From positions 1-64,000 of the forward strand of contig JAUCBJ010003987.1 of assembly GCA_032718475.1 (NCBI GenBank): a stretch of DNA of 64,000 bases, in the 5' to 3' direction. Position 1 is the stretch's first letter. Each line of letters begins with the position of its first letter. The DNA is from Nemertoderma westbladi. Lineage: Eukaryota; Animalia; Xenacoelomorpha. The position numbers were made by a program, and so were the translations under genes. Below the pieces are notes generated by a model that worked only from the letters and a program-made list of their open reading frames with translations, made no database searches and had not been told where the DNA came from. Positions 4,544 through 40,599 of the stretch are shown here, piece by piece.

Positions 4544-5974
4544 TCAACAAGTTTTACTGCATTTGGACTTTTCGGAAAGACAATCATCCTCATTCATAGA
4601 AATACATTCTGTGTTCCGTTTGGTGATCACAGACCACTGGCGGGGAACAGACGAACTAAATATCGCGAATAGAACGCCGACGCAACCGTAGAGAACGGCT
4701 GCAACGAGGAACACATTCCTCCACTGCTCCCGAGTTCCATCTGCCGTTGTCACGCTCACCAAATAGGGTGCGGCTAGTGTAAGCCCCGAGCCTAGGGTGT
4801 TACCGGCACCCACTGTAACACCCACATGGGAGGGTGCCACCTCGTTGTGATTAACCATAAACCCACCACCGTACGAACAACCAAGTCCAGTGAAACATAG
4901 GCTTAATAGGAAGACAGATATTCCTGGGTTAGTTTCCGGCACCCACCCCACGCACGCCATAGACACTCCGCATATACAGACACCCACACTGTTTAACAAT
5001 TTCCTAGTCACCGTGGCGGAAATAATCCTTCTTTTAATTAGTAAATCTGCGAGCCAAGAGAAACTTACTAACCCCACTAAGTTACCGACATAAGGCAGAG
5101 ACGATATGAACCCATTCCTCTCTATAGCGAATTCTAAAACTTCCTCCATGTAGGACGGAAGTTGTGTTGCCAAGGTTACAAGTACAGTTAAGGACATGGA
5201 GGTCATTATCATTGGTGCCCAAATAGCAACGTCACATAATAACAGTTTCCATGGTATCGAGAGTTTAACATATTCTTTTTTAGTTATTTGTAGTAAATAT
5301 TCTTTCTCTTGGTTGCTAATCCGTGGATGATGCGTCGGCGAGTCGTATAAGAAGAAATAGAACAGGATTGTTGTAATAAATGATATTCCTCCGCTGATGT
5401 AGTACAGAGACGGCCAACCCCCGTCGAATCCGTGTACAGCTAGCCAACCACCGGCCTGCATTGTCATTATTATACCCAATGGGAAGCCGGCCCATGTTAA
5501 TGCAATCATCTGACTGCAGTGTACGGGGGCGGTCCATGAATGGATGAGTATGTGGAACGACGGGAAGAATGGGCCAACAAACACGCCCTGTAAGAAACGA
5601 AACACAATAAGAGCTGCCCAATGCCATCTAGCGGCGACTGGGTGCAACAACGTGACTACAGTGGCCAGGGCAGAGGAAACCACTAAGGATATTCTAGGTC
5701 CGTAACTTGTTGCTATGCAACCGCCGGACACCGAACCCACACCGTAACCCCAGAAGACTGCACTCAGAATCAATCCTTCTATAGATTTATTCCAATGGAA
5801 AACATTGTAGCCAAGGTCGCCATCTGTTTCGTTGTTATTGGCATTTACAGTTGTCATGGGAACTATTGTAATAGCGATGGAATATCTCGATATATTCAGT
5901 ACAATTGCTCCACAAACGATAAGAATAATGACTGTAAGCCGACAGCTTCCAACCAAGCGCAGTTCATTTACCAT
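4544..5974 (-). CDS. SLC17-family (sialin/VGLUT/inorganic phosphate cotransporter-like) MFS anion transporter, intronless
   Basis: 476 aa with ~12 hydrophobic segments. SLC17-type motifs: FHWNKSIEGLILSAVFWGY, RFLQG, GWPSLYY, DSPTHHPRISNQEKEYL, IPW, LPSYMEEVL, NGFISSLPY, TRKL, W(R)NVF. Confidence 0.9.
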   Translation of the reverse strand: MVNELRLVGSCRLTVIILIVCGAIVLNISRYSIAITIVPMTTVNANNNETDGDLGYNVFHWNKSIEGLILSAVFWGYGVGSVSGGCIATSYGPRISLVVSSALATVVTLLHPVAARWHWAALIVFRFLQGVFVGPFFPSFHILIHSWTAPVHCSQMIALTWAGFPLGIIMTMQAGGWLAVHGFDGGWPSLYYISGGISFITTILFYFFLYDSPTHHPRISNQEKEYLLQITKKEYVKLSIPWKLLLCDVAIWAPMIMTSMSLTVLVTLATQLPSYMEEVLEFAIERNGFISSLPYVGNLVGLVSFSWLADLLIKRRIISATVTRKLLNSVGVCICGVSMACVGWVPETNPGISVFLLSLCFTGLGCSYGGGFMVNHNEVAPSHVGVTVGAGNTLGSGLTLAAPYLVSVTTADGTREQWRNVFLVAAVLYGCVGVLFAIFSSSVPRQWSVITKRNTECISMNEDDCLSEKSKCSKTC

Positions 5975-6520: not shown

Positions 6521-7424
6521 AGATAAAGATAAATTCCTAGATGTTAGAACGGGGTTGAATTCAATAATTAAAATCGTAGTGGTCTTTTCTTATGTCAATT
6601 ATGCAAGGTATGTGGTGCAGTACTAATATTATTTTATTTATTTGTATGTAATTAATTCCGGACTACTTACGGGGTAACTTGCCAGTTACCCCTAAAGACG
6701 TTTTCAGATTTAAAATCCTCATTGAATTCTGCCCCAGATACGTTAAATAAATTTATGAAATCCCCCCCCCCCCCCCCCCTTACAATACATCAAGGGCCAA
6801 CAATTGGCCAATTTGTTTGGTAGTAACTTTGAAATTTATCTACCAATGGTCCCCGGCTGCCCTTTCTTTAATTTTTCATGAAAAACCGCAAATAATAACC
6901 TGCAAAATAGTTATTTATAAAATTATTTAATTGTTTATTAATAAATTTTAATTATTAATAATTGAAATTATACGTCAGGGGACACACCGCAAAGTATATT
7001 CAATCTTGTTTCCATATCATTAGTGGAATATTTACCGAAATTCCGATATTCTTCTGCCCACCTGTATTATAATTTTCACTCGTTGCTCTTATTAGCAAGG
7101 GCTTCGCTTTTGCCAAAAGCATTGTAAATAGTTAAAAAATTATACTGTTGAACACTTCCTCTTTTTTTTATTGAATTATATTTATTTCATTTTCAATAAT
7201 TAACAGAATAAAGAAAATTACATTTAATTAAAAAAAAATTGAATACAAAATAATGTAAGTCCTACTACGAATTGTACTTATATAGTTTTATATTTATTTC
7301 CAGTTTTTAACTTATACTTTCAGTTTAAAATCTTGGGTAATTTAGTTCTAGTTACTTTTTTAAACAATTGCTGTTTCACGTCAGAAAAAATGCCAGAAAC
7401 AATTTTAGTTCTATTTTGTATTCA

Positions 7425-10400
7425 GTTCGCAGCACTAGTCCCTCGGTTGGAGTCCCGTATCTAGCTAGTTTCTGTTCGCAGCACTAGTCCCTCGGTTGGA
7501 GTCCCGTATCTACCTAGTTTCTGTTCGCAGCACTAGTCCCTCGGTTGGAGTCCGTATCTACCTAGTTTCTGTTCGCAGCACTAGTCCCTTGGTTGGAGTC
7601 CCGTATCTAGCTAGTTTATGTTCGCAGCACTAGTCCCTCGGTTGGAGTCCAGTATTTAGCTAGTTTCTGTTCGCAGCACTAGTCCCTCGGTTGGAGTCCA
7701 GTATTTAGCTAGTTTCTGTTCGCAGCACTAGTCCCTTGGTTGGAGCCCGTATCTACCTAGTTTCTGTTCGCAGCACTAGTCCCTTGGTTGGAGTCCCGTA
7801 TCTAGCTAGTTAATGTTCGCAGCAGTAGTCCCTCGGTTGGAGTCCAGTATTTAGCTAGTTTCTGTTCGCAGCACTAGTCCCTCGGTTGGAGTCCGTATCT
7901 ACCTAGTTTCTGTTCGCAGCACTAGTCCCTTGGTTGGAGCCCGTATCTACCTAGTTTCTGTTCGCAGCACTAGTCCCTTGGTTGGAGCCCGTATCTACCT
8001 AGTTTCTGTTCGCAGCACTAGTCCCTTGGTTGGAGTCCTGTATCTAGCTAGTTTATGTTCGCAGCACTAGTCCCTCGGTTGGAGTCCAGTATATAGCTAG
8101 TTTCTGTTCGCAGCACTAGTCCCTCGGTTGGAGTCCAGTATTTAGCTAGTTTCTGTTCGCAGCACTAGTCCCTTGGTTGGAGCCCGTATCTACCTAGTTT
8201 CTGTTCGCAGCACTAGTCCCTTGGTTGGAGTCCCGTATCTAGCTAGTTTATGTTCGCAGCACTAGTCCCTCGGTTGGAGTCCAGTATTTAGCTAGTTTCT
8301 GTTCGCAGCACTAGTCCCTTGGTTGGAGCCCGTATCTACCTAGTTTCTGTTCGCAGCACTAGTCCCTTGGTTGGAGTCCCGTATCTAGCTAGTTTATGTT
8401 CGCAGCACTAGTCCCTCGGTTGTAGTCCAGTATTTAGCTAGTTTCTGTTCGCAACACTAGTCCCTCGGTTGGCGTCCAGTATTTAGCTAGTTTCTGTTCG
8501 CAGCACTAGTCCCTCGGTTGGAGTCCCGTATCTAGCTAGTTTCTGTTCGCAGCACTAGTCCCTCGGTTGGAGTCCAGTATTTAGCTAGTTTCTGTTCGCA
8601 ACACTAGTCCCTCGGTTGGAGTCCCGTATCTAGCTAATTTCTGTTCGCAGCACTAGTCCCTCGGTTGGAGTCCCGTATCTACCTAGTTTCTGTTCGCAGC
8701 ACTAGTCCCTCGGTTGGCGTCCAGTATTTAGCTAGTTTCTGTTCGCAGCACTAGTCCCTCGGTTGGAGTCCCGTATCTAGCTAGTTTCTGTTCGCAGCAC
8801 TAGTCCCTCGGTTGGCGTCCAGTATTTAGCTAGTTTCTGTTCGCAGCACTAGTCCCTCGGTTGGAGTCCCGTATCTAGCTAGTTTCTGTTCGCAGCACTA
8901 GTCCCTCGGTTGGAGTCCAGTATTTAGCTAGTTTCTGTTCGCAACACTAGTCCCTCGGTTGGAGTCCCGTATCTAGCTAATTTCTGTTCGCAGCACTAGT
9001 CCCTCGGTTGGAGTCCGTATCTACCTAGTTTCTGTTCGCAGCACTAGTCCCTTGGTTGGAGCCCGTATCTACCTAGTTTCTGTTCGCAGCACTAGTCCCT
9101 TGGTTGGAGTCCCGTATCTAGCTAGTTTATGTTCGCAGCACTAGTCCCTCGTTTGGAGTCCAGTATTTAGCTAGTTTCTGTTCGCAGCACTAGTCCCTCG
9201 GTTGGAGTCCAGTATTTAGCTAGTTTCTGTTCGCAGCACTAGTCCCTTGGTTGGAGCCCGTATCTACCTAGTTTCTGTTCGCAGCACTAGTCCCTTGGTT
9301 GGAGTCCCGTATCTAGCTAGTTTATGTTCGCAGCACTAGTCCCTCGGTTGGAGTCCAGTATTTAGCTAGTTTCTGTTCGCAGCACTAGTCCCTCGGTTGG
9401 AGTCCGTATCTACCTAGTTTCTGTTCGCAGCACTAGTCCCTTGGTTGGAGCCCGTATCTACCTAGTTTCTGTTCGCAGCACTAGTCCCTTGGTTGGAGCC
9501 CGTATCTACCTAGTTTATGTTCGCAGCACTAGTCCCTCGGTTGGAGTCCAGTATTTAGCTAGTTTCTGTTCGCAGCACTAGTCCCTCGGTTGGAGTCCAG
9601 TATTTAGCTAGTTTCTGTTCGCAGCACTAGTCCCTTGGTTGGAGCCCGTATCTACCTAGTTTCTGTTCGCAGCACTACTCCCTTGGTTGGAGTCCCGTAT
9701 CTAGCTAGTTTATGTTCGCAGCACTAGTCCCTCGGTTGGAGTCCAGTATTTAGCTAGTTTCTGTTCGCAGCACTAGTCCCTTGGATGGAGCCCGTATCTA
9801 CCTAGTTTCTGTTCGCAGCACTAGTCCCTTGGTTGGAGTCCCGTATCTAGCTAGTTTATGTTCGCAGCACTAGTCCCTCGGTTGGAGTCCAGTATTTAGC
9901 TAGTTTCTGTTCGCAGCACTAGTCCCTCGGTTGGCGTCCAGTATTTAGCTAGTTTCTGTTCGCAGCACTAGTCCCTCGGTTGGAGTCCCGTATCTAGCTA
10001 GTTTCTGTTCGCAGCACTAGTCCCTTGGTTGGAGTCCAGTATTCAGCTAGTTTCTGTTCGCAGCACTAGTCCCTTGGTTGGAGCCCGTATCTACCTAGTT
10101 TCTGTTCGCAGCACTAGTCCCTTGGTTGGAGTCCCGTATCTAGCTAGTTTATGTTCGCAGCACTAGTCCCTCGGTTGGAGTCCAGTATTTAGCTAGTTTC
10201 TGTTCGCAGCACTAGTCCCTCGGTTGGCGTCCAGTATTTAGCTAGTTTCTGTTCGCAGCACTAGTCCCTCGGTTGGAGTCCCGTATCTAGCTAGTTTCTG
10301 TTCGCAGCACTAGTCCCTTGGTTGGAGTCCAGTATTTAGCTAGTTTCTGTTCGCAACACTAGTCCCTCGGTTGGAGTCCAGTATTTAGCTAGTTTCTGTT

Positions 10401-13400
10401 CGCAGCACTAGTCCCGCGGTTGGTGTTCCGTATCTAGCTAGTTTATGTTCGCAGCACTAGTCCCTCGGTTGGAGTTCCGTATCTAGCTAGTTTATGTTCG
10501 CAGCACTAGTCCCTTGGTTGGAGTCCCGTATCTAGCTAGTTTATGTTCGCAGCACTAGTCCCTCGGTTGGAGTCCAGTATTTAGCTAGTTTCTGTTCGCA
10601 GCACTAGTCCCTCGGTTGGAGTCCCGTATCTAGCTAGTTTCTGTTCGCAGCACTAGTCCCTCGGTTGGAGTCCAGTATTTAGCTAGTTTCTGTTCGCAGC
10701 ACTAGTCCCTCGGTTGGAGTTCCGTATCTAGCTAGTTTCTGTTCGCAGCACTAGTCCCTTGGTTGGAGTCCCGTATCTAGCTAGTTTCTGTTCGCAGCAC
10801 TAGTCCCTTGGTTGGAGTCCCGTATCTAGCTAGTTTATGTTCGCAGCACTAGTCCCTCGGTTGGAGTCCAGTATTTAGCTAGTTTCTGTTCGCAGCACTA
10901 GTCCCTCGGTTGGAGTCCCGTATCTAGCTAGTTTCTGTTCGCAGCACTAGTCCCTTGGTTGGAGTCCCGTATCTAGCTAGTTAATGTTCGCAGCAGTAGT
11001 CCCTCGGTTGGAGTCCAGTATTTAGCTAGTTTCTGTTCGCAGCACTAGTCCCTCGGTTGGAGTCCGTATCTACCTAGTTTCTGTTCGCAGCACTAGTCCC
11101 TTGGTTGGTGCCCGTATCTACCTAGTTTCTGTTCGCAGCACTAGTCCCTTGGTTGGAGCCCGTATCTACCTAGTTTCTGTTCGCAGCACTAGTCCCTTGG
11201 TTGGAGTCCTGTATCTAGCTAGTTTATGTTCGCAGCACTAGTCCCTCGGTTGGAGTCCAGTATATAGCTAGTTTCTGTTCGCAGCACTAGTCCCTTGGTT
11301 GGAGCCCGTATCTACCTAGTTTCTGTTCGCAGCACTAGTCCCTTGGTTGGAGCCCGTATCTACCTAGTTTCTGTTCGCAGCACTAGTCCCTTGGTTGGAG
11401 TCCTGTATCTAGCTAGTTTATGTTCGCAGCACTAGTCCCTCGGTTGGAGTCCAGTATATAGCTAGTTTCTGTTCGCAGCACTAGTCCCTCGGTTGGAGTC
11501 CAGTATTTAGCTAGTTTCTGTTCGCAGCACTAGTCCCTTGGTTGGAGCCCGTATCTACCTAGTTTCTGTTCGCAGCACTAGTCCCTTGGTTGGAGTCCCG
11601 TATCTAGCTAGTTTATGTTCGCAGCACTAGTCCCTCGGTTGGAGTCCAGTATTTAGCTAGTTTCTGTTCGCAGCACTAGTCCCTTGGTTGGAGCCCGTAT
11701 CTACCTAGTTTCTGTTCGCAGCACTAGTCCCTTGGTTGGAGTCCCGTATCTAGCTAGTTTATGTTCGCAGCACTAGTCCCTCGGTTGTAGTCCAGTATTT
11801 AGCTAGTTTCTGTTCGCAGCACTAGTCCCTCGGTTGGCGTCCAGTATTTAGCTAGTTTCTGTTCGCAGCACTAGTCCCTCGGTTGGAGTCCCGTATCTAG
11901 CCCTCGGTTGGAGTCCAGTATTTAGCTAGTTTCTGTTCGCAGCACTAGTCCCTTGGTTGGAGCCCGTATCTACCTAGTTTCTGTTCGCAGCACTAGTCCC
12001 TTGGTTGGAGTCCCGTATCTAGCTAGTTTATGTTCGCAGCACTAGTCCCTCGGTTGGAGTCCAGTATTTAGCTAGTTTCTGTTCGCAGCACTAGTCCCTC
12101 GGTTGGAGTCCGTATCTACCTAGTTTCTGTTCGCAGCACTAGTCCCTTGGTTGGAGCCCGTATCTACCTAGTTTCTGTTCGCAGCACTAGTCCCTTGGTT
12201 GGAGCCCGTATCTACCTAGTTTATGTTCGCAGCACTAGTCCCTCGGTTGGAGTCCAGTATTTAGCTAGTTTCTGTTCGCAGCACTAGTCCCTCGGTTGGA
12301 GTCCAGTATTTAGCTAGTTTCTGTTCGCAGCACTAGTCCCTTGGTTGGAGCCCGTATCTACCTAGTTTCTGTTCGCAGCACTACTCCCTTGGTTGGAGTC
12401 CCGTATCTAGCTAGTTTATGTTCGCAGCACTAGTCCCTCGGTTGGAGTCCAGTATTTAGCTAGTTTCTGTTCGCAGCACTAGTCCCTTGGATGGAGCCCG
12501 TATCTACCTAGTTTCTGTTCGCAGCTCTAGTCCCTTGGTTGGAGTCCCGTATCTAGCTAGTTTATGTTCGCAGCACTAGTCCCTCGGTTGGAGTCCAGTA
12601 TTTAGCTAGTTTCTGTTCGCAGCACTAGTCCCTCGGTTGGCGTCCAGTATTTAGCTAGTTTCTGTTCGCAGCACTAGTCCCTCGGTTGGAGTCCCGTATC
12701 TAGCTAGTTTCTGTTCGCAGCACTAGTCCCTTGGTTGTAGTCCAGTATTTAGCTAGTTTCTGTTCGCAGCACTAGTCCCTTGGTTGGAGCCCGTATCTAC
12801 CTAGTTTCTGTTCGCAGCACTAGTCCCTTGGTTGGAGTCCCGTATCTAGCTAGTTTATGTTCGCAGCACTAGTCCCTCGGTTGGAGTCCAGTATTTAGCT
12901 AGTTTCTGTTCGCAGCACTAGTCCCTCGGTTGGCGTCCAGTATTTAGCTAGTTTCTGTTCGCAGCACTAGTCCCTCGGTTGGAGTCCCGTATCTAGCTAG
13001 TTTCTGTTCGCAGCACTAGTCCCTTGGTTGGAGTCCAGTATTTAGCTAGTTTCTGTTCGCAACACTAGTCCCTCGGTTGGAGTCCAGTATTTAGCTAGTT
13101 TCTGTTCGCAGCACTAGTCCCGCGGTTGGTGTTCCGTATCTAGCTAGTTTATGTTCGCAGCACTAGTCCCTCGGTTGGAGTTCCGTATCTAGCTAGTTTA
13201 TGTTCGCAGCACTAGTCCCTTGGTTGGAGTCCCGTATCTAGCTAGTTTATGTTCGCAGCACTAGTCCCTCGGTTGGAGTCCAGTATTTAGCTAGTTTCTG
13301 TTCGCAGCACTAGTCCCTCGGTTGGAGTCCCGTATCTAGCTAGTTTCTGTTCGCAGCACTAGTCCCTCGGTTGGAGTCCAGTATTTAGCTAGTTTCTGTT

Positions 13401-14180
13401 CGCAGCACTAGTCCCTCGGTTGGAGTTCCGTATCTAGCTAGTTTCTGTTCGCAGCACTAGTCCCTTGGTTGGAGTCCCGTATCTAGCTAGTTTCTGTTCG
13501 CAGCACTAGTCCCTTGGTTGGAGTCCCGTATCTAGCTAGTTTATGTTCGCAGCACTAGTCCCTCGATTGGAGTCCAGTATTTAGCTAGTTTCTGTTCGCA
13601 GCACTAGTCCCTCGGTTGGAGTCCCGTATCTAGCTAGTTTCTGTTCGCAGCACTAGTCCCTCGGTTGGAGTCCCGTATCTAGCTAGTTTTTGTTCGCAGC
13701 AGTAGTCCCTCGGTTGGAGTCCCGTATCTAGCTAGTTTCTGTTCGCAGCACTAGTCCCTCGGTTGGAGTCCAGTATTTAGCTAGTTTCTGTTCGCAGCAC
13801 TAGTCCCTCGGTTGGAGTCCAGTATTTAGCTAGTTTCTGTTTGCAGCACTAGTCCCTTGGTTGGAGTCCCGTATCTAGCTAGTTTCTGTTCGCAGCACTA
13901 GTCCCTCGGTTGGAGTCCAGTATTTAGCTAGTTTCTGTTCGCAGCACTAGTCCCTCGGTTGGAGACCAGTATTTAGCTAGTTTGTGTTCGCAGCACTAGT
14001 CCCTCGGTTGGAGTCCCGTATCTAGCTAGTTTCTGTTCGCAGCACTAGTCCCTCGGTTGGAGTCCAGTATTTAGCTAGTTTCTGTTCGCAGCACTAGTCC
14101 CTCGGTTGGAGTCCAGTATTTAGCTAGTTTCTGTTGGCAGCACTAGTCCCTCGGTTGGAGTCCCGATATCTAGCTAGTTT
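7425..14180. repeat. Satellite array, 48-49-bp unit (GTTCGCAGCACTAGTCCCTCGGTTGGAGTCCCGTATCTAGCTAGTTTCT), ~138 copies
   Basis: Period 49 (unit starts at 7425 and 7474); a few recurrent variants; no unique spacers. Confidence 0.97.
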
Positions 14181-20592: not shown

Positions 20593-21366
20593 ATGTTACT
20601 ATTCTTATATTTATATTTAATACTCTCAGTACTTTACTTACATCCTATATTTGGTATAGGAACCACCACAGCATACAGAAGAGTAGCTGGTACCGACCAC
20701 ATTCTAGAAGGAAGTAACCTTGGCAACGAAAGCTTTAAAGACAGCGTCGCTCAGTGCGCAATAACTTGTTCGTCCACCCATGGATGCTTATCGTTTAACT
20801 ACAAGCAGGTTGAGAAGCTCTGTCAGCTAAAAGATATCGAGGCTGGTGATGTTGATACAACCGGTCTGGTTCAACATGTAAAAGGGGGGTACTTCTCCCG
20901 GTCTCCGACGTGTAAAGTTGGCTGGAAATACAGACAGGGGAGCTGCTATTGGCTGGATACAGCGCCGACAACTTGGGCCAATGCCAAGGCCGAATGTGAA
21001 GAGAAGAGAGCCAAACTGCTGTACTTGAACCCGGAGGAGAACTTCAAAGCGGAAATGCGATGGTTAAAAGAGATGGTTGAACCGTATGGAGTATCTGCAT
21101 ACTTTGTAGGAGCCACTGACAGCGATCATGAAGGTGTGTGGAAATGGAGCAATGGGTTGCAACTAACAGTGGAGCAAATGTTTGCAAGGTTTGGACAACT
21201 GACGTTCTCGAATCATAATGGTTTAACTGGTGGTAATCGTGGCCTGGACAACTATGGAAATGAACAACACGTTCTGCAATTTTATCCGTCATTTTTAACA
21301 TTTAACGATACCAACGATTTAAAGCATCGTCCCTTTATTTGCAAATACTCAGCGGAACTAAAATAA
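20593..21366 (+). CDS. Secreted PAN/Apple-domain + C-type lectin-like domain protein, intronless
   Basis: ATG at 20593, then a hydrophobic signal peptide. PAN-like CAITCSSTHGCLSFNY...CQL. CTLD CKVGW..GSCYW...TWANAKAEC...VGATD..HEGVWKW...FICK. Confidence 0.88.
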   Translation: MLLFLYLYLILSVLYLHPIFGIGTTTAYRRVAGTDHILEGSNLGNESFKDSVAQCAITCSSTHGCLSFNYKQVEKLCQLKDIEAGDVDTTGLVQHVKGGYFSRSPTCKVGWKYRQGSCYWLDTAPTTWANAKAECEEKRAKLLYLNPEENFKAEMRWLKEMVEPYGVSAYFVGATDSDHEGVWKWSNGLQLTVEQMFARFGQLTFSNHNGLTGGNRGLDNYGNEQHVLQFYPSFLTFNDTNDLKHRPFICKYSAELK

Positions 21367-22035: not shown

Positions 22036-23691
22036 GACTGCTTGCATTACATGTTTAAGAGAGATTATAACATTATTTATGTAGATGCATACGATTGTCC
22101 ACAAGCTGTTCTCATGGCGAAAACAACCAAAGTCAAGAATATGGACTCAAAACGGTTTGTGAGATGGATCATATCCATCTGGTTCATATGCATATGGATC
22201 ATATTCATATGGATCATAATCTATATGGATCATATCAATAAGATTATCGATAATATTGCTAAAATTATGTTCTATAAGATATCGATAATATTTTTAATAT
22301 TATGTTCTGAGTCATTGTTTTTAACTATAAAACGCTTCTTAAAATACTTACTAGATGTTCAGCAATTTCCACTGCGGGCAGTTTAGCACACAGAGAATGA
22401 TGAGTCCGCTGCAGTTTGGGTCAACTTATTGAACTGAACTGAACTGGTTGAACTGAAAAATTTAGTTTGTATTTTTGTAAGCGGATCCATTCCGCTCTAC
22501 ATTTCCAACCTAAATTGGAAGGGAGCCGAATAAACAATATTGGACCCAGAGAAATACCGAATCAGTAAGTGGGCACCAACAAGCCCACTTACAGCTACAG
22601 GAAATCATACCAGGCAAATTAATACCCCACTAAGTGGAACCTTATGGCAGACAGATGAGTGGTGTGACTGGACTTGTGGGGGGGGGGGGGGGGGGGGTAA
22701 TAACATTACTTACATTAATATAATAACGCTAATAATACTACCGTATGTGATAATTCCAATATTAATGAACGTGTTAGTACGCAAATTAATATTTTAATAA
22801 ATAACAACCAAAATATTACTGGTACTGGCACAATAAATAATGTATATAATAACAATTTGATGAATAACAACATAGAAAATAATGCACAAAATAATTCATA
22901 ATACAGTGAATAATGAAGCAAAAAATAATACGCCTAGTGGCGGGAATGAAGGTGGGGATGCAGGTGGGCCATACTAGTGGCAATATAAGTAATGTGTCGA
23001 CCGGAAGAGTGTGTGGAGAAGGGGTTAACCGAGACGCTCATAGAAGTGACGGGTGGGGGGGGGGGGGGGGGGCAATAAATACCCCACAGGCATCGGCTGG
23101 GGGGCGTGCACAGTGAAACAAAACTCGGAGTGCCAATGCCGGAAGAGAATAGAAGATTAGCGAATATCTATGAAGCCGTACTACCGGGTAGGGGATGAGG
23201 TGGTCACGCCATAATCGGCCAAATTAAGGAACGTCAAACCCATTCAGGAGAGTTCATCCGGGAGATCGAAACTAGATCTCATGAATGTGGATATGATGCC
23301 AGAAGTGGACGACGCGGGGAAAGTGGGAGGATTACTCGAGGTAATGTTGCTGTTGCTACGAGCAACTGGAGGAGTCGAGATAGGACGGACAGTGAACCGT
23401 CAATAATCGAGGTGGAGGAGACAAACCGGTGGGACCTAACTTCGGGAGATTGCTGTCGCCCCGAAGAGACGCGGTCTGTGGATTTATATTACGCAATGGG
23501 AGGAGGGTATAGGATGTACCGAGAGAATGAATGAAACGAGATGATTTGAGGGGATCGTAGAGAAACTTCCCATTAACAAATTAACCCATGAAAACCATTA
23601 CTCCTCTCTCAAACCTTCACAAACCAAAATTAATAAAATTATCCGATGCATCCCATTTTCTCACTACCGATCGCAATCATCGTCAAACACT

Positions 23692-24390
23692 AGTAGTAAG
23701 AGTATGCCATCCTCGGCGACAGTTAGACCAACTTCACACCTTAGGTGTTAAGTAGGTCATTAATTAATTAAACAATTAATTAATTTGTCGATTAATCAAT
23801 TAATTAATTGTTTAATCGATCGATTTGTATCAAATAATGTTGCCAAAGGCAATTTAATTTGACAAAAATCAATCAGATAGGGACGTGCGATGAATAGATT
23901 GTACTACAGTAGATAAAATATACAATACAATAGGAACAATAATACAATATACAGTGCATTTGTATTATTTTTGCCGTACAATAGAATGATAGAATGAAAT
24001 ATAAAGAAGCGAGCGGGGCCCAAAACATAAATTAGCGTCACACGATAATAAAATGGGCCAGTTTGATCCTAGCTCAGTCCCTCAATAATCTGTGGCTGTT
24101 TGGGCTCTTATTAGACGTAGCATGACTAACCCCATTGAATCCTATGTTGAGTTATACTGTATACCAACCTGGGGCTGCCACAAAGTTTAAATTATTTAAA
24201 CCTCCAGCTTCGTTATCATGTAGACCATTGTCAAATCGCCCGAGAAATTAGAATAAACATCTGGTTTTGCAATAGATTGCATTCTTTCACATTGTATTGT
24301 GAAGCAGCCTGCGCGCCTAATCGCACGCTCCAAGTATTAGCTCAGTGACAAAGCCAATACCCAAAAACCATATGTCAAATTAACCCTCAA
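23692..24390 (+). repeat. Left terminal inverted repeat of the Polinton-like element
   Basis: Reverse complement of 28312-29013 with scattered substitutions. Confidence 0.95.
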
Positions 24391-24606
24391 GAAAAATCCA
24401 AGAAACATCTGGTTTGCAATAGATTATTCTTTTTCACAACTCCATTCTAGCTTCCCTCTATAATAGCCCCCATTCACTGCATTCCCATTCATTCTCTAAT
24501 TTTCATTTTTAAAAGTTTTATTTATTTTAATAAAAGTTTTATTTATTTAAAATTTTGTAAAATCATTTAACGAAAATTGAATACTATCAATTGAAATTGC
24601 TATATA

Positions 24607-25325
24607 ATGCCTAGTTATGAAAAATGCATGGTTTGTGATAAAGAAATGAGACGAGACAGTATATCCCGCCATATGAGTATACATAGAAAGCAAGGTGTAA
24701 TGGAACCTTCCCCAAAGAAATTAAAAAATAATGATGATATTTTTAGTGAAGAAGAGAACAAAAAGAGAGTTGAGAGTGATTTTCTAGAGATTAAACAAAT
24801 GATGAAACATAAATTCGAGAAAATCATGAATATTTTGAAAAATATACAGAAACAGCCACATAGTGAAAAGGATGATGAGATGAAGATGATAAATCAGAGG
24901 AAAGTGAAAAGGTTGAGAATGATGAAACGGAGAGTGAGATAGAGAAAGAAGAAAATGAGAGTGGTGATGAAGAAAATGAGAGCGAGAAAGAAGTCGAGGA
25001 ACATGAAAGTGGGGAGGAGAATGACTCAGATAATGAGGAGATATTAAGACATGTATTAGGAAATAAAAATAAATTGCAGAAAATAATTAGACAATTGAAT
25101 GAAATGCAGAAACATTCGCATAAGGAGAGTGATAATGATGGAAATGAGAGTGGTGAGGATGAATCGGAGGAGAGTAGCGATGACAGTGAGGAAGAATCAG
25201 AGGAGAGTAGCGATGACAGTGAGGAAGCATCAGAGGAGAAAGATAATGAAAATGGACAGAAAATCAGAGTAGGGAATGGAAAAGTTATATCTCCAGCACT
25301 GTTGTATATCGACCTAGGAGTATGA
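24607..25325 (+). pseudogene. C2H2-like zinc finger + highly acidic protein, one frameshift near 24879
   Basis: CMVC-x11-HMSIH and PSPKKLK (NLS-like). Shifting frame at GATGAG/ATGAAG gives an open D/E/S-rich frame that continues into ORF 25074-25325. AATAAA at ~25445. Confidence 0.7.
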
Positions 25326-25569
25326 ACAGTCGTACAGTTAATGCGAGACATTAATTATAACTGAAATATTGTATATGTTTGAAATATTTATTATATTTAG
25401 TCGTATTAATTATGTAATTTCATAATAATATGCTTAATTAAACAAATAAAGTCAACTTGATCCTATTTTAAATGCATAATGAATGAGTAACCAAAACATC
25501 AAATTAGTTAAACATTTTGACAACAGATAAACAAATATTCTCCTGTGGGGAGAAGTGGTGTGCTGGAGA

Positions 25570-26462
25570 AGTGGCTGAAGGTGAGGCTGTGGCTGAAGGT
25601 GAGGCTGTGGCTGAGGGTGAGGCTGTGGCTGTGGCTGAAGGTGAGGCTGTGGCTGAGGGTGAGGCTGTGGCTGTGGCTGTGGCTGTGGCTGTGGCTGTGG
25701 CTGTGGCTGTGGCTGAAGGTGAGGCTGTGGCTGAGGGTGAGGCTGTGGCTGTGGCTGTGGCTGTGGCTGAGGCTGTGGCTGTGGCTGTGGCTGTGGCTGT
25801 GGCTGTGGCTGTGGCTGAAGGTGAGGCTGTGGCTGAGGGTGAGGCTGTGGCTGTGGCTGTGGCTGTGGTTGTGGCTGTGGCTGTGGTTGTGACTGTGGCT
25901 GTGGCTGTGGCTGAGGCTGAGGCTGTGGCTGTGGCTGTGGCTGTGGCTGTGGCTGAAGGTGAGGCTGAGGGTGAGGCTGTGGCTGTGGCGTTGTGGCTGT
26001 GGCTGTGGCTGTGGCTGTGGCTGTGGCTGTGGCTGTGGCTGTGCTGTGGCTGTGGCTGTGGCTGTGGCTGTGGCTGTGGCTGTGGCTGTGGCTGTGGCTG
26101 TGGCTGTGGCTGTGGCTGTGGCTGTGGCTGTGGCTGTGGCTGTGGCTGTGGCTGTGGCTGTGGCTGTGGCTGTGGCTGTGGCTGAAGGTGAGGCTGTGGC
26201 TGAGGGTGAGGCTGTGGCTGTGGCTGTGGCTGTGGCTGTGGCTGTGGCTGTGGCTGTGGCTGTGGCTGTGGCTGTGGCTGTGGCTGTGGCTGTGGCTGTG
26301 GCTGTGGCTGTGGCTGAAGGTGAGGCTGTGGCTGAGGCTGTGGCTGTGGCTGTGGCTGTGGCTGTGGCTGTGGCTGTGGCTGTGGCTGTGGCTGTGGCTG
26401 TGGCTGTGGCTGTGGCTGTGGCTGTGGCTGTGGCTGTGGCTGTGGTTGTGGCTGAGGCTGTG
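25570..26462. repeat. (GCTGTG)n hexamer microsatellite with interspersed GAAGGTGAG/GAGGGTGAG units
   Basis: Directly visible, ~900 bp, in the middle of the Polinton-like element. Confidence 0.97.
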
Positions 26463-27344
26463 TCTCAGTGCCTCACTCCCCCACTCGTTTAACAGTACAG
26501 GCTAAAGCCATTCTTTAGATGCTGGAGGGGAATCTGGTTTGCATTGGATAACTTGATTAGTGAGTATATCTACATTTGGGAGATAGTGCGCTGTCTTATG
26601 AGTAAAAGCCAAGAGAGTAGTCCTTGGGTTCGCTCTTCTTAACTTTACAATATAACTTAACCCTTATTTAAAGTTTTAAAAAATATTTCTTAGTCGAGTA
26701 ATTTTCTGAAATATATTATAGAAATTTCATGAATAAATAGACCTAACAGTAATAATTGTTGTGAATAAATAGTCCTAATACTAATATTAAAGGAAGTCAA
26801 ACAAACAAATAAATTTCATCAGCATCGTCCTACGCATGCAAATACTGTATGAGAGTTCCACATAATAGGATCTCGACAATTAATAACCAACTTTTCTGAC
26901 TTTGTGGTGGCTCTCCTTTCATAGACACAGAAGTGTTAGTTGCTTTGGTAAGTAATCATTCTCATTAGTTAGTGATTGTAGTTTGGAAAGTGCTTCCCGC
27001 GCGCAATCTGTATCATCAATAGAAAACGCATAAACATATCGTCGATCGGAAATTTCTAATATGTCACAGTTATAGGCAGTATAAATCTTTATTCGTTCTG
27101 AAATTATTTCTTCATAGTCATCAACGCTGGCGCCAAGGCAGATGGTGGTGGCTTCCTTTACCTGATTGTCTAGTGCTTCCTAACCTGTATAATTCAACAA
27201 AGTTTAAAGTTTTTACTGTGTGTGTCTTTTTCATAGCCTATGTTAAATCAAATTACATTCATGTAACTATTGTAACATTTATATTATAAAATGGATATGG
27301 TGAGGGATTGAACTTATTGTTACTTGATTTATTTACCTTGTCAA

Positions 27345-27659
27345 TTAATCCCATGCTTCTTCTCTCCATTCTTTTTCTATGCCCCACGCTTCTTTCGGCC
27401 ATTCAACGCTAGGGTTTTCGGTTTTGATTTGTTCTTCTTCTTTTCTTTTTTCGTGAATGGACTTCCCATTTCGATACTGACAGTATCTTAAATGGTATTG
27501 TTTTTCTGCCTCGGGAAAGTAATGGCATTGGATGTTCGGGCATTGAACTATTTTTTCACCTGGATAATTTCTTCTACATTTTCTTAAATGTTTGATAAAT
27601 CTTTCTACATGGATTCTGTGGGTTGTTTCATATGGGCATATTATATACTCATTATCCAT
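27345..27659 (-). CDS. GTSF1: Miniature GTSF1/Asterix (gametocyte-specific factor 1)-like protein, 104 aa, carried by the Polinton-like element
   Basis: Two tandem U11-48K-type CHHC fingers with exact C-x5-H-x9-H-x3-C spacing (C8/H14/H24/C28 and C40/H46/H56/C60). CPY..H.I..RF..HL.KCR.N.P matches GTSF1 finger 1. Acidic Trp-rich tail ends EEAWD. AATAAA lies ~12 nt after the stop (27328-27333, minus strand). The symbol denotes family homology, not orthology. Confidence 0.88.
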   Translation of the reverse strand: MDNEYIICPYETTHRIHVERFIKHLRKCRRNYPGEKIVQCPNIQCHYFPEAEKQYHLRYCQYRNGKSIHEKRKEEEQIKTENPSVEWPKEAWGIEKEWREEAWD

Positions 27660-28311
27660 TATAAAAAGTATATGATAAACTATATTGTATTTTATATTGT
27701 ATATTATAAAATTGTTAATTTAATTACTAATAATAATTATTACCTTAGTGAATATTGAATGAATATAGTGAATATTGAATGAATATAGAGAAGTGGTTTA
27801 TTATATTATATTAAAGTAATACTCAATCTAAGGCTTATTTATCGACAAATAAATTTATTATAATATATTAACATTTGATGTATTTTATTTTTTAGATTTA
27901 CCAAAATCACGCACTATAATAGAATAATAACTAACTAACTTATCCATCACCATCACAACAGAATAATAACAATAAAAGTTCGAAAGTACACCCTGCATCC
28001 TATGTGTAGCCTTGTATGGGCATATACAGTAATATAATCACTGTTATCCATAGTATCAAAAAGACAAACTTAACTTGAAAGAAAACTTAACTTGATAGAA
28101 AACTTAGTTTAAGTGAGGATTTAATTTAAAAAACTTTGAAAACTTCACTTTAACGTTTTTTAGAGATAATGATTTAACTTTACATGATTTTTATTTATAT
28201 AGAAAGGTCCACCTTAACATTTCAAACAAGGCCGTAGTTTTCGGCATGGCATGCGTGAAGGATTATGCATTACTTCAAACAATAAAACTATAGTATCTAG
28301 TATAGAGATGG

Positions 28312-29013
28312 TTGAGGATTAATTTGACATATGGTTTTTGGGTACTGGCTTTGTCACTGAGCTAATACTTGGAGTGTGCGATTAGGCGCGCAGGCTGCTT
28401 CACAGCACAATGTGAAAGAATGCAATCTATTGCAAAACCAGATGTTTATTGTAATTTCTCGGGCGATTTGACAATGGTCTACATGATAACGAAGCTGGAG
28501 GTTTAAATAATTTAAACTTTCGTGGCAACCCCATGTTGGTATACAGTATAACTCAACATAGGATTCAATGGGATTAGTCATGCTACATCTAATAAGAGCC
28601 CAAACAGCCACAGATTATTGAGGGGCTGAGCCAGGACCAAACTGGCCCATTTCATTTTCGTGTGAGGCTAATTTATGTTTTGGGCCCCGCTCGCTTCTTT
28701 ATATTTCATTCTATCATTCTACTGTACGACAAAAATAATACAAATGTACTGTATATTGTATTATCTGTTCCTATTGTATTGTATATTTTATCTACTGTAG
28801 TACAATCTATTCATCGCGCGTCCCTATCTGATTGATTTGTGTCAAATTAAATTGCCTTTGGCAACATTATTTGATACAAATCGATCGATTAAACAATTAA
28901 TTAATTGTTTAATCGACCAATTAATTAATTGTTTAATTAATTAATGACCTACTTAACACCCAAGGTGCAAAGTGGGTCCAACTGTCGCCGAAGAGGGCGT
29001 TCATCTTACTACT
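28312..29013 (-). repeat. Right terminal inverted repeat of the Polinton-like element
   Basis: Mirror of 23692-24390. Confidence 0.95.
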
Positions 29014-29419
29014 AACACTATCTATAAATCTTCATCCATATTACCTCTTCAGCTACTATACAATCACCAAACCGCTTCACTTGTGTATGATCTTAAGATT
29101 TTCAAAAAATATCTCACAGCTACTCCACTCGCTTGGCTACCACCTCTGGGTTCATAGTGGCTTCATAGTCACCATCTGGAACTCGATCCCTGCTGATATC
29201 AAGTAACTAAATCGTCCACCTTGGTGGTATTTAAAAAAAAAAACAAACAATTTAATTAATTATTAATTAATTAGGTTCCACTAGCTCTGCTATATTACCT
29301 GGGTCTTTGCCGTTAACTAACTAATACTCACCATTTCATTTCATAACGCTAAGTGCAATTAATATTTGGTTGTAAGTGAAGGAAATCAATAAAGTTACAA
29401 AGTTAGAAAGTTAAAACAT

Positions 29420-30413
29420 GAATGAGAGACTGAATCATAGGCCCTGAAGAAGTCAACAAAGAAAACAGCCACATGCCTGTCTTTCTTTTTTGATAATTCT
29501 AATTATTCTTCTAAGTGCCAAAATGGGCTCCATGGTCCCACGACCTTTACGGAACCCATTCTGATTTCCACGGAGCAGTCTCTCAATGGGATCCCTGATG
29601 CGATTTAATAGAATTCTATTGTATAGCTTTGCAGCAATCGAGATAAATGAGATTCCCCGAAAAGAATCATAGGGTGTTAGGTTGCCCTTCTTGGAAACTG
29701 GCACCAACTTATTAGTTTTCATTTCTTTTGGGACTCTTGTTGTTCGGTACATGTCTTCTATGATGGGATAATTGGAGCTCCAAACTCTCAGTTATTTTAA
29801 AAACCTCTTGGTGGTTAGTTGGCTTTTCAGCTGGGATGAATGAGCTCCAAACACTCTGGTATTTTAAAGACCTCAGGGGGATCATCTAATCCACTGTCAC
29901 GATTGGTCTTAATGCTCTTTGCAGCAGCCTTCACTTCAGCAAAGGAGATATCACCAATAATGGGAATATCTGGAAGTACAGATACAGACAATTTAATTAT
30001 ATAAAGTTATCAGGCAATACCCTGTCATTATTGAGGAGCTTTTCAAAGTGGGCCTTCCAACCATTGTGGCGATTGGTGGTGATTCAGCCTTAACCTTGGT
30101 GGTTGGTTAGTTTTTCCGCTCACTCAGCAAGTTGATCGATTTCCATGCCTGGGATGATTGCCTGATGTCATCAGCATCATCGATGGCATCAACCTGTTGG
30201 TGTAAAGGCTCCTGTAGATTAACAGATTAATGCCTGTTCAGGGACCTAGAAGCAACATTCTCCAATACGCAGAGGAGCCTTTGGGCCTCCTCTCTTGTGA
30301 TTCTGACAGTACCCCTAAGTCATCAGCAAAGTCTAGATCAGTAAGGTAATTTACTGGATTTCCTCTACTTCTTGTGCAAGTAGGGGGTGTTACCATCACC
30401 CTATCATCATTAA
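29420..30413 (-). mobile_element. Degenerate RTE-type retrotransposon fragments
   Basis: KKGNLT..SFRGIS..AAKLYNRILLNRI..NQNGFRKGR at 29453-29752. YLTDLDFADDL at ~30310-30350 continues the RT broken at 33725. Confidence 0.85.
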
Positions 30414-33724: not shown

Positions 33725-34420
33725 ATTAAGATGGTCTAAGGACATGCGTAGAATATAATCAACTACAATGACAAATACGAATGGTGCAATGGTGAATGGA
33801 TCTGTGACACCATCAGCAGTAGACACAAATGTGGTGGAACAATCGTACAGTGATCTGATAGCTGCAATAATTTCCTCATGAATCCCATATTGTGCCAGAA
33901 TGCTTTAACATACCTAGTTGGGAGACTGAGTCGAAGACTTTACGTACAGAAATGAATAAAGATAATAGCCAGATGTCTGTCTTTATTTGTTGATAACTCT
34001 TTGATTATCTTTCTAAGTGCCAGAATAGACTCCATGGTCCCACGACCTTTAGGGAACCCATTTTGGTTCCCATGTACCAGTCTCTCAACAGGATTCCTGA
34101 TGTGATTTAATATAATTCTGTTGTATAGCTTTGAAGCAATCGAGATTAATGAGATTCCACGAAAAGATCCATGGGTTGTTAGGTTTCCTTTCTTTGGGAC
34201 CAACTTATTTGTTTTCAGTTCTTGAGAGACTTTCTTTGTCCTATACATGTCCTTAATATTGGGGTGAATGAGCTTCAAGCATTTATGAAATTTAAAGACC
34301 TCAGGGGGCACTCTACTCCCCTGGCATGATTGGTCTTGATGCTCATAGCTACAATCTTGATTTCAGAAAAGGAGATGTCACCAATTGGGATATCTGTGAG
34401 CACAGACTCAGATGAAGATG
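33725..34420 (-). mobile_element. Degenerate RTE-type RT (upstream half of the interrupted copy)
   Basis: KKGNLT..SFRGISL..NQNGF; IAPFVFVIVVDYILRMSLDHLN joins to 30413. Confidence 0.85.
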
Positions 34421-34934: not shown

Positions 34935-36203
34935 TTAAATGCTGATTTTCATTTCAATTCTTTCTGCAGGATCTACAGCAGTGAACTCCAGCCACCATGG
35001 CCCATGCTGCCCGCCAGCACCATATATCCCATTCAAATTTGCATGCGAACAACTCTTGTACCACCAAGCGCCTCTGAAATGCACAGCACAGTTATCAAAA
35101 CCATATTCATCATTGTCCCGATCCTTTGTGGTAAAGGACTGACCATCTAACCAATCAGGGTGAGAGGGGCCACTTATTAACATAGCATTCCCTGCAGTCC
35201 CTTGGTATCCTGCAATTCTTAAAGTATAAGTTGTGCTTTCCGAACCAACTCGGAATAAAGAATATTCCGCGAATCCATATTTCCCCCTATACCAGATATC
35301 CACTCTCAGTTTAACCCCTCCAGCAGTAAGATTGTGTATGGTATCCAACCCTAACCAAAATTCGTTGCTAACATCACCGAATCCAGACTTATAATACGCC
35401 CACTCCCGATAAAAGTCCATGGCTCCATTAATTCTCCTCTGAATCACCAACCATGGACCACCTGGGACCATGGTGTCACATCTGATTAAACCATTTAGGC
35501 CATAATCACTACTGTAGATTCTAATTGTATTATTCAGTTGATAATTGTGACAAAGATTATTTGGAGGAACTCCTAGTGCCATAATTATTGCTTCCTTTTG
35601 TTCATCAATCTTACCAATGAATTCATTTGATTGTTCATTAACTTTCCCATCAAATATGTCACTTAGTTCATTAAGTGTATTTCTCAAGGTTTCAGTATTC
35701 GTACTAATGTTATAAGTAAATTCATTTATATTTACCTTCACCACATCATGGAATATTTTTGAATGATGAATTAGATTACTATATACTATATCATTGTGGT
35801 CTTCGACGTTTGCGTTAAAGTTGCTAGTTAGATAATCTAGTTGCTCACCTATTGTCTCTTCTTTATCCTTTAGACTGTCAGCAAATTTATCCAACTTCAT
35901 TATGATTTCTATTTGGTTATTTATCATGAAAAAAGAAATCCTTGCCAAGGCAGCCATCACAACTAGTAGTCCAATAAGTGTTATAATTATAATTATCCAC
36001 TTGCATTTTGTTGGATTTCTCTGAGCAATTTTCTCACCCTCAGTTTTGAGTGTTCCTTCACTGATTATCGGATCCGGCACATCATATACGGAATATACGC
36101 CTTCTTCAATAACTGATGGCTTTTGTTTACCCATCAATGTTAACTCATAAACAGGATTAGTCAACTTAACTGCATCATCATTTATTTTTAGAGAAGTTGC
36201 CAT
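34935..36203 (-). CDS. Type-II transmembrane FReD receptor, copy 2 (422 aa), intronless
   Basis: Cytoplasmic N-terminus, single TM (WIIIIITLIGLLVVMAALA), helical stalk, FReD (WLVIQRR, GFGD...EFWLGL, FTTKDRDND, GAWWY..C..ANLNG, EMKI). Confidence 0.93.
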   Translation of the reverse strand: MATSLKINDDAVKLTNPVYELTLMGKQKPSVIEEGVYSVYDVPDPIISEGTLKTEGEKIAQRNPTKCKWIIIIITLIGLLVVMAALARISFFMINNQIEIIMKLDKFADSLKDKEETIGEQLDYLTSNFNANVEDHNDIVYSNLIHHSKIFHDVVKVNINEFTYNISTNTETLRNTLNELSDIFDGKVNEQSNEFIGKIDEQKEAIIMALGVPPNNLCHNYQLNNTIRIYSSDYGLNGLIRCDTMVPGGPWLVIQRRINGAMDFYREWAYYKSGFGDVSNEFWLGLDTIHNLTAGGVKLRVDIWYRGKYGFAEYSLFRVGSESTTYTLRIAGYQGTAGNAMLISGPSHPDWLDGQSFTTKDRDNDEYGFDNCAVHFRGAWWYKSCSHANLNGIYGAGGQHGPWWLEFTAVDPAERIEMKISI

Positions 36204-38156: not shown

Positions 38157-40599
38157 CCCGCCTATACCCGGTTTTGTTTTGCCACATAGACACCCGCTTT
38201 GGGTCAATTTGACCCATACCTACAAAAAACGACTTTGTAGGGGAAATAATCAATTTCCACACTGCCAATATAATTATAGGGTTAAAATATAGTACAAGTG
38301 ATTGTACAGAGTTATATATCGATTACCAATATCATGTTATCGATTGTTATCAATATCATGTTATCAATAGTATGTTCGGACTCTAGGTGCAACTAGTGCA
38401 ATACGTTGATACACGTGAATGTACGTCGCAGATGAAGTGTGCACAGTTGTCGCATTTTCGTGAATACTTTGTAGACCCAGACTTTTGTGGGCACCTGTAG
38501 CATCTCCCACGTTTGGGAACTTTGGGTGCTGAAACACTGGAGCCCACCAAGGATGTACTGAGCTGCTGCTCTCGCTGGGCTATAGTACGAGGTGCCTCAG
38601 CAATATGACGGGATAGGGTACGAGACGTCATACTGATCTTCATAAGACCCTGAGATACCTCTGTTAGGTAATTGAACCTCGCCCGATTAGTGCGACGGGT
38701 TGTTGGGAAGAGAGTGTAATACACCACAAACCCGGCAACTGCAGCGACATCAACTACCACCATGAAGACCCGCATGGGCCAGCGGCGGGTGGCCCTGCGT
38801 GCTGTGAAATGACCCACCATCGCATCCATCACATCAACACCACATTTTTGCGCATTATAATCCAAAATCATGCTGGGTTTGTGGGTCGCCTCGGCTGAAA
38901 CTTCCTGATCAAAGTGGGACGATGATAACATCAGCACACACTTGCTTGCCTTTGGTATATACGAAACCAATGTTGCGTCATTGGTGTGGCCGAACAAACT
39001 GGAATGGACTTGTCTTCCCCGTGTGTCAACGAACTCTTGGGGAACCTCCGGCTTGTTACGCCTGACAGTTCCTAGGTAGCTGAGCCGATGCTGCTTCAGT
39101 TCCAATAAAAGTTCCATACTACTAAAGAAGTTGTCTGCGCAAATGTTTCTATTAGTTCCAAATAAAGGCTGCGCCAAGTCCAGGACCACACGCTTAGACT
39201 GTCCCTTTTCTCGTGCTTCATTCGGAAGCCGGCCGCAATAAACTTGGCCATTGTATGGATAGAATGTCTCAGAGTCATATAGCCACCAGAACTTGATGCC
39301 GTACTTCGCTGGCTTTGATGGGATGTATTGCCGGAATGGACACCTACCACGGAATGGTGACAGCATCTCGTCCACAGTCACAGTCGGACCTGGTACATAG
39401 GACGATCGGAGACGGTTTACAAACATGTCCCACACTTCCCGGATTGGGGCCAGTTTGTCAGTAGCTCGCCGTTCTACACGAGTCTCTTTGTTGTCAAAGC
39501 GAAAGTGGCGCAAAATTTCAACGAAACGATTTCGGGACATAGTGGCACTGTAAATGGGCCGGCCATATTCATTGTGGAAGAGTGAACGTACTGGAAGTCG
39601 ATTGTCTCGATGAACTCCTGCAAAGATAAGGATGCCGAGGAAACCATACAGCTCGTCGAGTGTAACGTCAGGGTCAATCGCACTGTTGTTCGTTGCGTCC
39701 AAAACGATCATCAACATTTCATGTGAAATGAAATTGGTAAATGTGTCCAGTGGGGAAGACATATTCTTATCTCTCACATGTTTGGGAATGGACCGACCCT
39801 CACGAATGATATTGATGGATCGAACTTGAGAAGTTGGAAGACATGGCGTCTTGCTCCACTCAATGTTGCCCCTACGTGATACATATAATGTTGCCCCTTC
39901 ACCTTCTCCATTGCTCTCCCCGACTCCTCCGGCATCACTCATCCCGCACTCCTCCACACCATCTCCGGCAGACACATTGCTTCCAGAGTCTTCCACCTCA
40001 CTCTCACCACCATCCAGTTCATCATTGTCATCTATTGCATCACTATCAACTCCATCGCTGTCATCCAGGAACTCATCTTGGGACGGAAAAAGGTACCCAT
40101 AGGCATTCACAGGACGTCTTGTCCGATTAGGATAACGATTCGACATACTAAATGATACCTCCGAAATTTGAGATCTCTGAGAGTGTTTATGTTTATCCAG
40201 TTACCTTTCAGCCTTTCAACTATATGATTAATATCAACATACAATCTCTACCGGTACAGCAGTACACTAAGATTCACTGGAGAAAATTCAAAATTCCCAC
40301 GTTTTTCAAGTTACCAATGGTACATTTCCTACTATGTATAAGCGCTTGTATAAGATAAGGAACAGCATTTACACTATTGGGTCAATTTGACCCACTTTGG
40401 TAAACCACGTGTACAAGGTGTTTAGATGTCTACTGCTAGAACACCATTTCGGTATATGTTATTATATTATAGCTTATGGTTACTAACTAGTAGGGGTAGG
40501 ATGTCACAAGATATTATGACCATCACGCCAGCCTGTACTTCACAGCTGGATTTTTAACAACGAGTTGGGCCAATTTGACCCACATCTGGTAACCGCGGG
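38157..40599 (-). mobile_element. Full-length piggyBac transposon (2443 bp)
   Basis: TTAA at 38153-38156 and 40600-40603. Termini CCCGC.../...GCGGG. Subterminal palindromes GGGTCAATTTGACCC at 38201 and 40379, with a variant at 40567. Confidence 0.93.
38383..40146 (-). CDS. piggyBac transposase, 587 aa, intact
   Basis: Acidic N-terminus; DDD triad motifs TVDEML, ADNFF, GVDVMD; PSKPAKYGIK; RRWP; C-terminal cysteine-rich domain. Confidence 0.95.
   Translation of the reverse strand: MSNRYPNRTRRPVNAYGYLFPSQDEFLDDSDGVDSDAIDDNDELDGGESEVEDSGSNVSAGDGVEECGMSDAGGVGESNGEGEGATLYVSRRGNIEWSKTPCLPTSQVRSINIIREGRSIPKHVRDKNMSSPLDTFTNFISHEMLMIVLDATNNSAIDPDVTLDELYGFLGILIFAGVHRDNRLPVRSLFHNEYGRPIYSATMSRNRFVEILRHFRFDNKETRVERRATDKLAPIREVWDMFVNRLRSSYVPGPTVTVDEMLSPFRGRCPFRQYIPSKPAKYGIKFWWLYDSETFYPYNGQVYCGRLPNEAREKGQSKRVVLDLAQPLFGTNRNICADNFFSSMELLLELKQHRLSYLGTVRRNKPEVPQEFVDTRGRQVHSSLFGHTNDATLVSYIPKASKCVLMLSSSHFDQEVSAEATHKPSMILDYNAQKCGVDVMDAMVGHFTARRATRRWPMRVFMVVVDVAAVAGFVVYYTLFPTTRRTNRARFNYLTEVSQGLMKISMTSRTLSRHIAEAPRTIAQREQQLSTSLVGSSVSAPKVPKRGRCYRCPQKSGSTKYSRKCDNCAHFICDVHSRVSTYCTSCT

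Follow-up and report, generated by a model that had tools for sequence, protein, structure and literature searches.

Introduction

GTSF1 is a cofactor on which PIWI proteins depend for the silencing of transposons. Studies of mouse GTSF1 report that basic residues are required for activation and the central tryptophan for PIWI binding, and that the central and C-terminal parts of GTSF1 determine which PIWI is chosen (PMC9385479, PMC9539491, PMC9808576). GTSF1 is described as being recruited to PIWI that is engaged with its target (10.64898/2025.12.23.696163), and an activated Piwi complex formed with GTSF1 and Maelstrom has been reported (PMC13269885). The structures 9nhb and 9nhc hold a complex of SIWI, piRNA, target, GTSF1 and Maelstrom.

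Polintons (Mavericks), large mobile elements, are recognized by the length of their terminal inverted repeats (TIRs), a 6-bp target-site duplication (TSD) and a short terminal tandem repeat (PMC4196379). The capture of cargo genes by Polintons is known in nematodes (PMC11131425), and a preprint groups some moth polintons as 'mael-associated', in passages that neither define 'mael' nor discuss piRNAs (10.1101/2025.02.07.637071).

Whether the transposons of animals make proteins against piRNA defence has long been a gap in the field. Such factors have been invoked to account for the fast evolution of piRNA genes, and a 2019 review states that its authors were aware of no such protein (PMC6719617). 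Two systems come close. In Drosophila, the transposon TART-A acquired sequence of the piRNA-pathway gene nxf2, a gene fragment proposed to act via antisense piRNAs (PMC7785250). In Arabidopsis, VANDAL transposons encode VANC, an accessory protein that counters host silencing by acting family-specifically on DNA methylation and that the same review does not describe as imitating a cofactor of its host (PMC6719617). The locus analysed here resembles TART-A in that a transposon has acquired piRNA-pathway gene sequence, but differs in holding a whole frame under protein-level constraint; by analogy with VANC, it is a candidate for an accessory protein of this kind.

Identity of the GTSF1-type protein

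The window, that is, the whole stretch of DNA that was analysed, comprises 64,000 nucleotides of a Nemertoderma westbladi contig (JAUCBJ010003987.1). On its minus strand, positions 27345-27659 form a single open frame for a protein of 104 aa. An earlier note on this DNA had described two CHHC fingers and an acidic, Trp-rich tail, and each of these parts could be located. Finger 1 (residues 8-28; 27576-27638, minus strand) has the zinc ligands C8, H14, H24 and C28, and finger 2 (residues 40-60; 27480-27542, minus strand) has C40, H46, H56 and C60. Both N-terminal fingers fit the pattern C-P-x4-H-x9-H-x3-C, and they stand 11 residues apart, as in GTSF1/Asterix proteins (mouse 6x46; 9nhb and 9nhc). 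The tail (residues 85-104; 27348-27407, minus strand), the predicted PIWI-docking part, carries tryptophans at positions 87, 92, 98 and 103 and ends in an E-E-x-W-D motif. The single exon claimed for the gene stands as one open frame, from which the exon structure is predicted.

Comparison with the Pfam profile zf-U11-48K, as the earlier note had proposed, gave a match at E 1.5e-5, with finger 1 scoring above the cut-off. In the PDB sequence search, mouse GTSF1 (6e-10) and the GTSF1 chain of 9nhb (7e-9) came well ahead of U11-48K (4e-3). The AlphaFold model had a mean pLDDT of 82, with fingers above 89, and its best matches in the fold search were 6x46 and 9nhc, so that the predicted fold agrees with that of GTSF1. 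In the Atlas, CHHC/GTSF1-like clusters ranked at the top (0.95-0.96), with the TRM13 cluster at 0.85. These three comparisons rule out a U11-48K or TRM13 identity and bear out the assignment to the GTSF1 type.

The word-based homologue search gave no candidate, and a profile-free library search returned 477 matches, with identity of at most 46% among the best 150 of the 477. The 20 named matches that were looked up were host GTSF1-like, CHHC-type, uncharacterized or hypothetical proteins, with none from a transposon or a virus, and Pfam found no transposon domain on the 150 aligned homologue rows. The viral structure library held no match to the protein at E 0.001 or better, and viral contigs held no relative of the ORF, of two other frames of the element or of the TIR pattern. 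The sole match of a metagenome scan (locus L001) was a short chance match without the first Cys/His of the finger and was dropped.

A tree of 137 rows and 61 columns, built by a quick method on GTSF1-type rows without U11-48K or TRM13, left the protein on a long branch without a place among the homologues, and it points to no donor of the gene. This tree and the comparisons with 136 homologues given below are based on tandem-finger proteins, 14 of the 150 matches without tandem fingers having been left out. The protein collection does not contain this organism's proteins (0 of 6 window proteins present), and a host-type MFS transporter of the window reaches only 30-32% identity with its best matches. 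Thus, part of the divergence of the GTSF1-type protein, its long branch included, may belong to the host lineage, and divergence by itself is no sign of residence in a transposon.

Architecture and class of the element

The ORF is enclosed in an element of 5,322 bp (23692-29013). Its left TIR (23692-24390, plus strand) and right TIR (28312-29013, minus strand), found by repeat alignment, are 95% identical over 703 columns, and at both termini the element begins, read inward, with AGTAGT. The terminal repeat AGT is itself typical of Polintons. Directly outside the termini, the direct repeat AACACT occurs on both sides (23686-23691 and 29014-29019, plus strand), and a 6-base match at this place has a chance of about 3e-4. 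The gene therefore lies, as had been noted before, inside the TIRs of a TSD-flanked element, and it points inward from the right TIR.

The remaining content of the element is a microsatellite, a broken accessory-type ORF and short frames without assignment. The accessory-type ORF (24607-25325, plus strand) has an N-terminal C2H2-like finger followed by an acidic low-complexity stretch, and its frame shifts around 24880-24940. It gave no Pfam family and no homologue among longer proteins; its look-alikes in the Atlas all score below 0.9 and are mainly small C2H2 proteins of large DNA viruses, a resemblance that may serve as a lead only. The microsatellite consists of 146 units of GGCTGT (25585-26462, strand not assigned). 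An internal segment at 26575-26890 (strand not assigned) has a contig depth far above that of the ORF, peaking at 10-50 times its value, and is common to many more genomic sites; it is either a separate high-copy repeat or a piece common to many derivatives. A TATA stands immediately before the ATG of both inward-facing ORFs (24603-24609 and 27657-27663) and differs in some other copies.

The traits shared with Polintons are TIRs within 100-1000 bp, a 6-bp TSD and a terminal tandem repeat within 1-3 bp. In contrast, a Polinton of 15-20 kb would carry pPolB, integrase, ATPase, protease and capsid genes, and no polymerase, integrase, ATPase, protease or capsid domain was found in the frames scanned in this 5.3-kb element. 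The frame scans and the viral contigs also gave no autonomous parent of the element. For this reason it was filed as a non-autonomous Polinton-like element and not as a Polinton, so that the earlier label of Polinton/Maverick-like holds for the ends and fails for size and core genes. The AATAAA credited to the gene as its own poly(A) signal is present 11 bases past the stop codon (27328-27333, minus strand), with a second one at 27088-27093; as the DNA is AT-rich, this putative signal, read from sequence, is weak evidence and was not accepted as a strong argument.

The earlier note had also taken the lack of introns as a sign of capture through mRNA. This argument is weak, because three host-type genes of the window, for the MFS transporter, a fibrinogen-domain protein and a lectin, are likewise single open frames, and intron loss was rejected as evidence of retro-capture. 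Intron-poor host genes appear to be common in the window. The transporter is sialin-like (4544-5974, minus strand), and the lectin gene combines PAN and C-type lectin domains (20593-21366, plus strand). Two related single-frame proteins each combine a hydrophobic stretch with a C-terminal domain of fibrinogen type (34935-36203 and 51719-52954, both minus strand), the Pfam result referring to the first of the pair.

Other repeats accompany the element in the window. A piggyBac-type transposase has an open frame of 587 aa (38383-40146, minus strand; Pfam DDE_Tnp_1_7, E 1e-73). A large satellite array of 49-bp period occupies about 7300-14000. A MITE-like inverted pair of 339-bp repeats, 96% complementary and 221 bp apart, lies at 1065-1963. 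Two related non-LTR reverse-transcriptase fragments lie at 29410-29752 and 33940-34248, the first with extremely high contig depth.

Copies of the gene in the genome

Contigs over the ORF numbered 26, 30, 23 and 1 in four DNA runs of this organism, which come from no more than three samples; several contigs were 90-95% alike or less, and ORF variants reach about 10% divergence. In three runs the summed depth over the ORF was 231-468, 317-629 and 1544-2624, as compared with 9-31, 8-32 and 60-182 over the flank at 29200-29409; the ORF is about 10-30 times deeper than this flank, a depth ratio that does not equal copy number. The contigs are short and none spans from the ORF to the TIR, and alleles and paralogues are counted together here.

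Several observations concern the surroundings of these copies. Depth is unbroken from the ORF to the right TIR, whose inner border is crossed by divergent contigs, and the outer TIR is far deeper than the ORF, with a sharp fall in depth at the terminus. Deletion joints (27660 to 27806, 27733 to 28058 and 27371 to 28171) tie ORF-adjacent to TIR-proximal DNA, and in one run the terminal TTACTACT is followed by a different flank. From the joints, the continuity of depth and the alternative flank, the other copies appear to lie in the same element context. The earlier expectation of further copies holds to this extent, of several diverged copies in a shared context, and does not extend to a full Polinton with the gene. 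A joint from 28047 back to 27050, present in two of the four runs, points to a 998-bp cassette (27050-28047), the whole GTSF1-type gene included, that is repeated in tandem.

Selection on the copies

Selection was assessed on 40 of the 55 rows of differences in the ORF, corresponding for the main contig to 14 of its 18 differences, with rows assigned by matching depth. Of these 40 rows, 21 are silent, 18 missense and one a stop, which gives a pN/pS of 0.19-0.31 (p at most 2e-4 across transition weights). The copies, for which the earlier note had allowed neutral evolution, are therefore not neutral, and neutral cargo was rejected on the silent excess. By region, the silent fraction is 14/22 in the fingers, 4/11 in the linker and 3/7 in the tail, linker and tail not being significant separately. 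In the commonest divergent contig, all 7 differences in finger 2 are silent, as compared with 2/7 in the linker. In the tail, the four high-depth differences (27354, 27369, 27381 and 27390) are all silent, the four missense rows all come from low-depth contigs, and the Trp codons are untouched in all listed rows.

In one contig of lower depth, which has lost a His ligand and is interrupted by a stop at codon 58, only 3/10 differences are silent; this contig is a decaying copy and an internal neutral control. A stop or deletions are seen in some of the copies. Overall, the differences look like those of a gene held under constraint during the spread of the element and decaying in some copies. 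Two traits of an anti-silencing protein, being encoded by the element and being under purifying selection among copies, were thus found, on short contigs and 40 of the 55 rows. We hold with high confidence that this is an element-borne gene under protein-level selection. Both the several diverged copies and the excess of silent differences are new with respect to the earlier note.

The broken copies would suit a passive cargo, or a sequence acting at the RNA level through piRNAs against the host gtsf1 mRNA alone, for which the proposal made for TART-A and nxf2 is a precedent (PMC7785250). Protein-level constraint is, however, not expected of either, and this reading, already disfavoured, is the least likely of those weighed here.

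The same data bear on a host-level retention, with selection acting for the host instead of the element. Here a gtsf1 paralogue of the host, carried along by the element or duplicated in tandem, would have multiplied, and some of its copies would be retained by the host. Multiple GTSF1 paralogues are common in hosts, the 28047-to-27050 joint indicates tandem cassettes, and the ORF is intact, although its neighbour is broken and the two TIRs have come to differ by 5%. Nevertheless, a 315-bp frame that is still intact after a few percent of divergence would not be improbable by chance. Moreover, the silent excess is seen between high-depth variants about 10% apart in a shared element context, and at least one copy decays, as would be expected if selection acted while the element spread. 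We regard retention by the host as improbable.

Remodelled anatomy of the protein

Finger 1 is canonical. In the alignment, R20, K27 and R30 correspond to R29, K36 and K39 of mouse, with a His at the variable R26 site, so the basic surface predicted for RNA binding (mouse R26, R29, K36 and K39) extends to R30 and keeps three of its four basic residues (H, R, K, R). As judged by alignment, three of four is the commonest state among the homologues (93/136), and the net charge of the finger is +5 against a homologue median of +4. The central aromatic residues that would serve PIWI docking are also in place, with the last Trp in the acidic motif and 43 residues past finger 2 (homologue median 42).

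Other parts have been changed. Finger 2 retains its ligands but its aromatic-Asn knuckle is replaced: among 136 tandem-finger homologues, N42 occurs in 0, I43 in 0 and Q44 in 2. The protein ends one residue past the last Trp, whereas only one of 99 homologues with an acidic Trp motif ends within five residues of it, the median being 150 further residues. Four tryptophans stand in the tail, against a maximum of three within 60 residues in the homologues. The knuckle and the region C-terminal of the Trp motif, both absent here, are typical traits of the homologue set that lie outside the published definition of GTSF1. In sum, the protein differs from known GTSF1/Asterix proteins in its length of 104 aa, its end at the Trp motif, its four tryptophans, its derived knuckle, its low identity to the matches and its place in a mobile element.

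Having CHHC fingers, which bind structured RNA (mouse GTSF1 binds tRNA; PMC9539491), the protein could have been repurposed for another RNA-binding job, for instance on tRNA or on the element's own transcripts, without PIWI. The altered finger 2 and the switch of partner of nematode GTSF-1 would agree with such a change. The nematode proteins, by contrast, lost these aromatic residues, and here the acidic Trp tail is retained and even multiplied, with four high-depth tail differences all silent. We consider a PIWI-independent role quite unlikely.

The canonical, basic finger 1 and the usual spacing of the last Trp raise a different prospect, that of a working minimal GTSF1 that boosts or redirects PIWI slicing and thereby holds competitors in check or reduces the damage that the element itself does to its host. 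Among the copies the two functional modules are conserved, and host paralogues with different tails are reported to activate chosen PIWIs still (PMC9385479, PMC9808576). Since the surface required for activation appears to be kept, the protein may simply activate PIWI; three of the four basic residues needed in mouse are present, which is an argument against a simple dominant negative as far as alignment can tell. The finger-2 knuckle, on the other hand, is unlike that of all 136 homologues, the C-terminal region is absent, and any benefit to the element from stronger silencing of itself would be indirect. An activator is in our view unlikely, although it deserves more weight than the other alternatives.

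Discussion

According to these data, the feature is real, and it is better supported than in the earlier note as regards copy number and selection; its functional role is putative. To judge from its modules, the protein probably binds PIWI. The explanation that we favour, tentatively, is that a Polinton-like family makes a remodelled GTSF1-type protein that binds target-engaged PIWI and competes with host GTSF1. An autonomous Polinton ancestor would have captured an animal gtsf1 gene, and its product would dock through finger 1 on RNA and through the Trp tail on PIWI, as host GTSF1 does. Slicing would then not be activated, or partners such as Maelstrom would not be brought in, and competition with host GTSF1 on target-engaged PIWI complexes would dampen piRNA silencing.

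This competitor is favoured because of the remodelling, which fits a decoy as far as sequence comparison goes, and because the benefit to the element would be direct. Since GTSF1 joins PIWI that has engaged its target, a mimic could not do without either docking module, and for this reason selection on the modules does not separate a decoy from an activator. That the protein is a net antagonist is accordingly a possibility we lean on with reserve. A broad piRNA blocker has been argued to be costly to the transposon's own germline (PMC6719617), and a broad block could harm host fertility. It must also be taken into account that the unusual finger 2 or the short tail might be present in the host's own GTSF1 as well.

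In the open-access literature we found no report of a transposon-borne GTSF1; Repbase, subscription papers and the supplementary gene maps of PMC8502044 may bear on novelty. The main text of PMC8502044 contains none of the terms mael, GTSF and piRNA. PMC8363768 and PMC9683012 gave nothing further, and 10.1101/2023.08.22.554363 had no term matches.

The 'mael' of the moth polintons presumably stands for Maelstrom, and if so, Polintons may have captured partners of the PIWI complex more than once. A more daring and more doubtful proposal is that Polintons turned the captured PIWI activation module into a high-avidity, activation-dead protein inhibitor that occupies target-engaged PIWI, both partners of the activated complex having been taken independently by this class of element. 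The ORF is a small and concrete candidate at the step controlled by GTSF1, and existing slicing assays suit it. Should it prove to be an activator instead, it would show a cofactor of host defence kept under selection by a selfish element, and it would define a natural minimal GTSF1.
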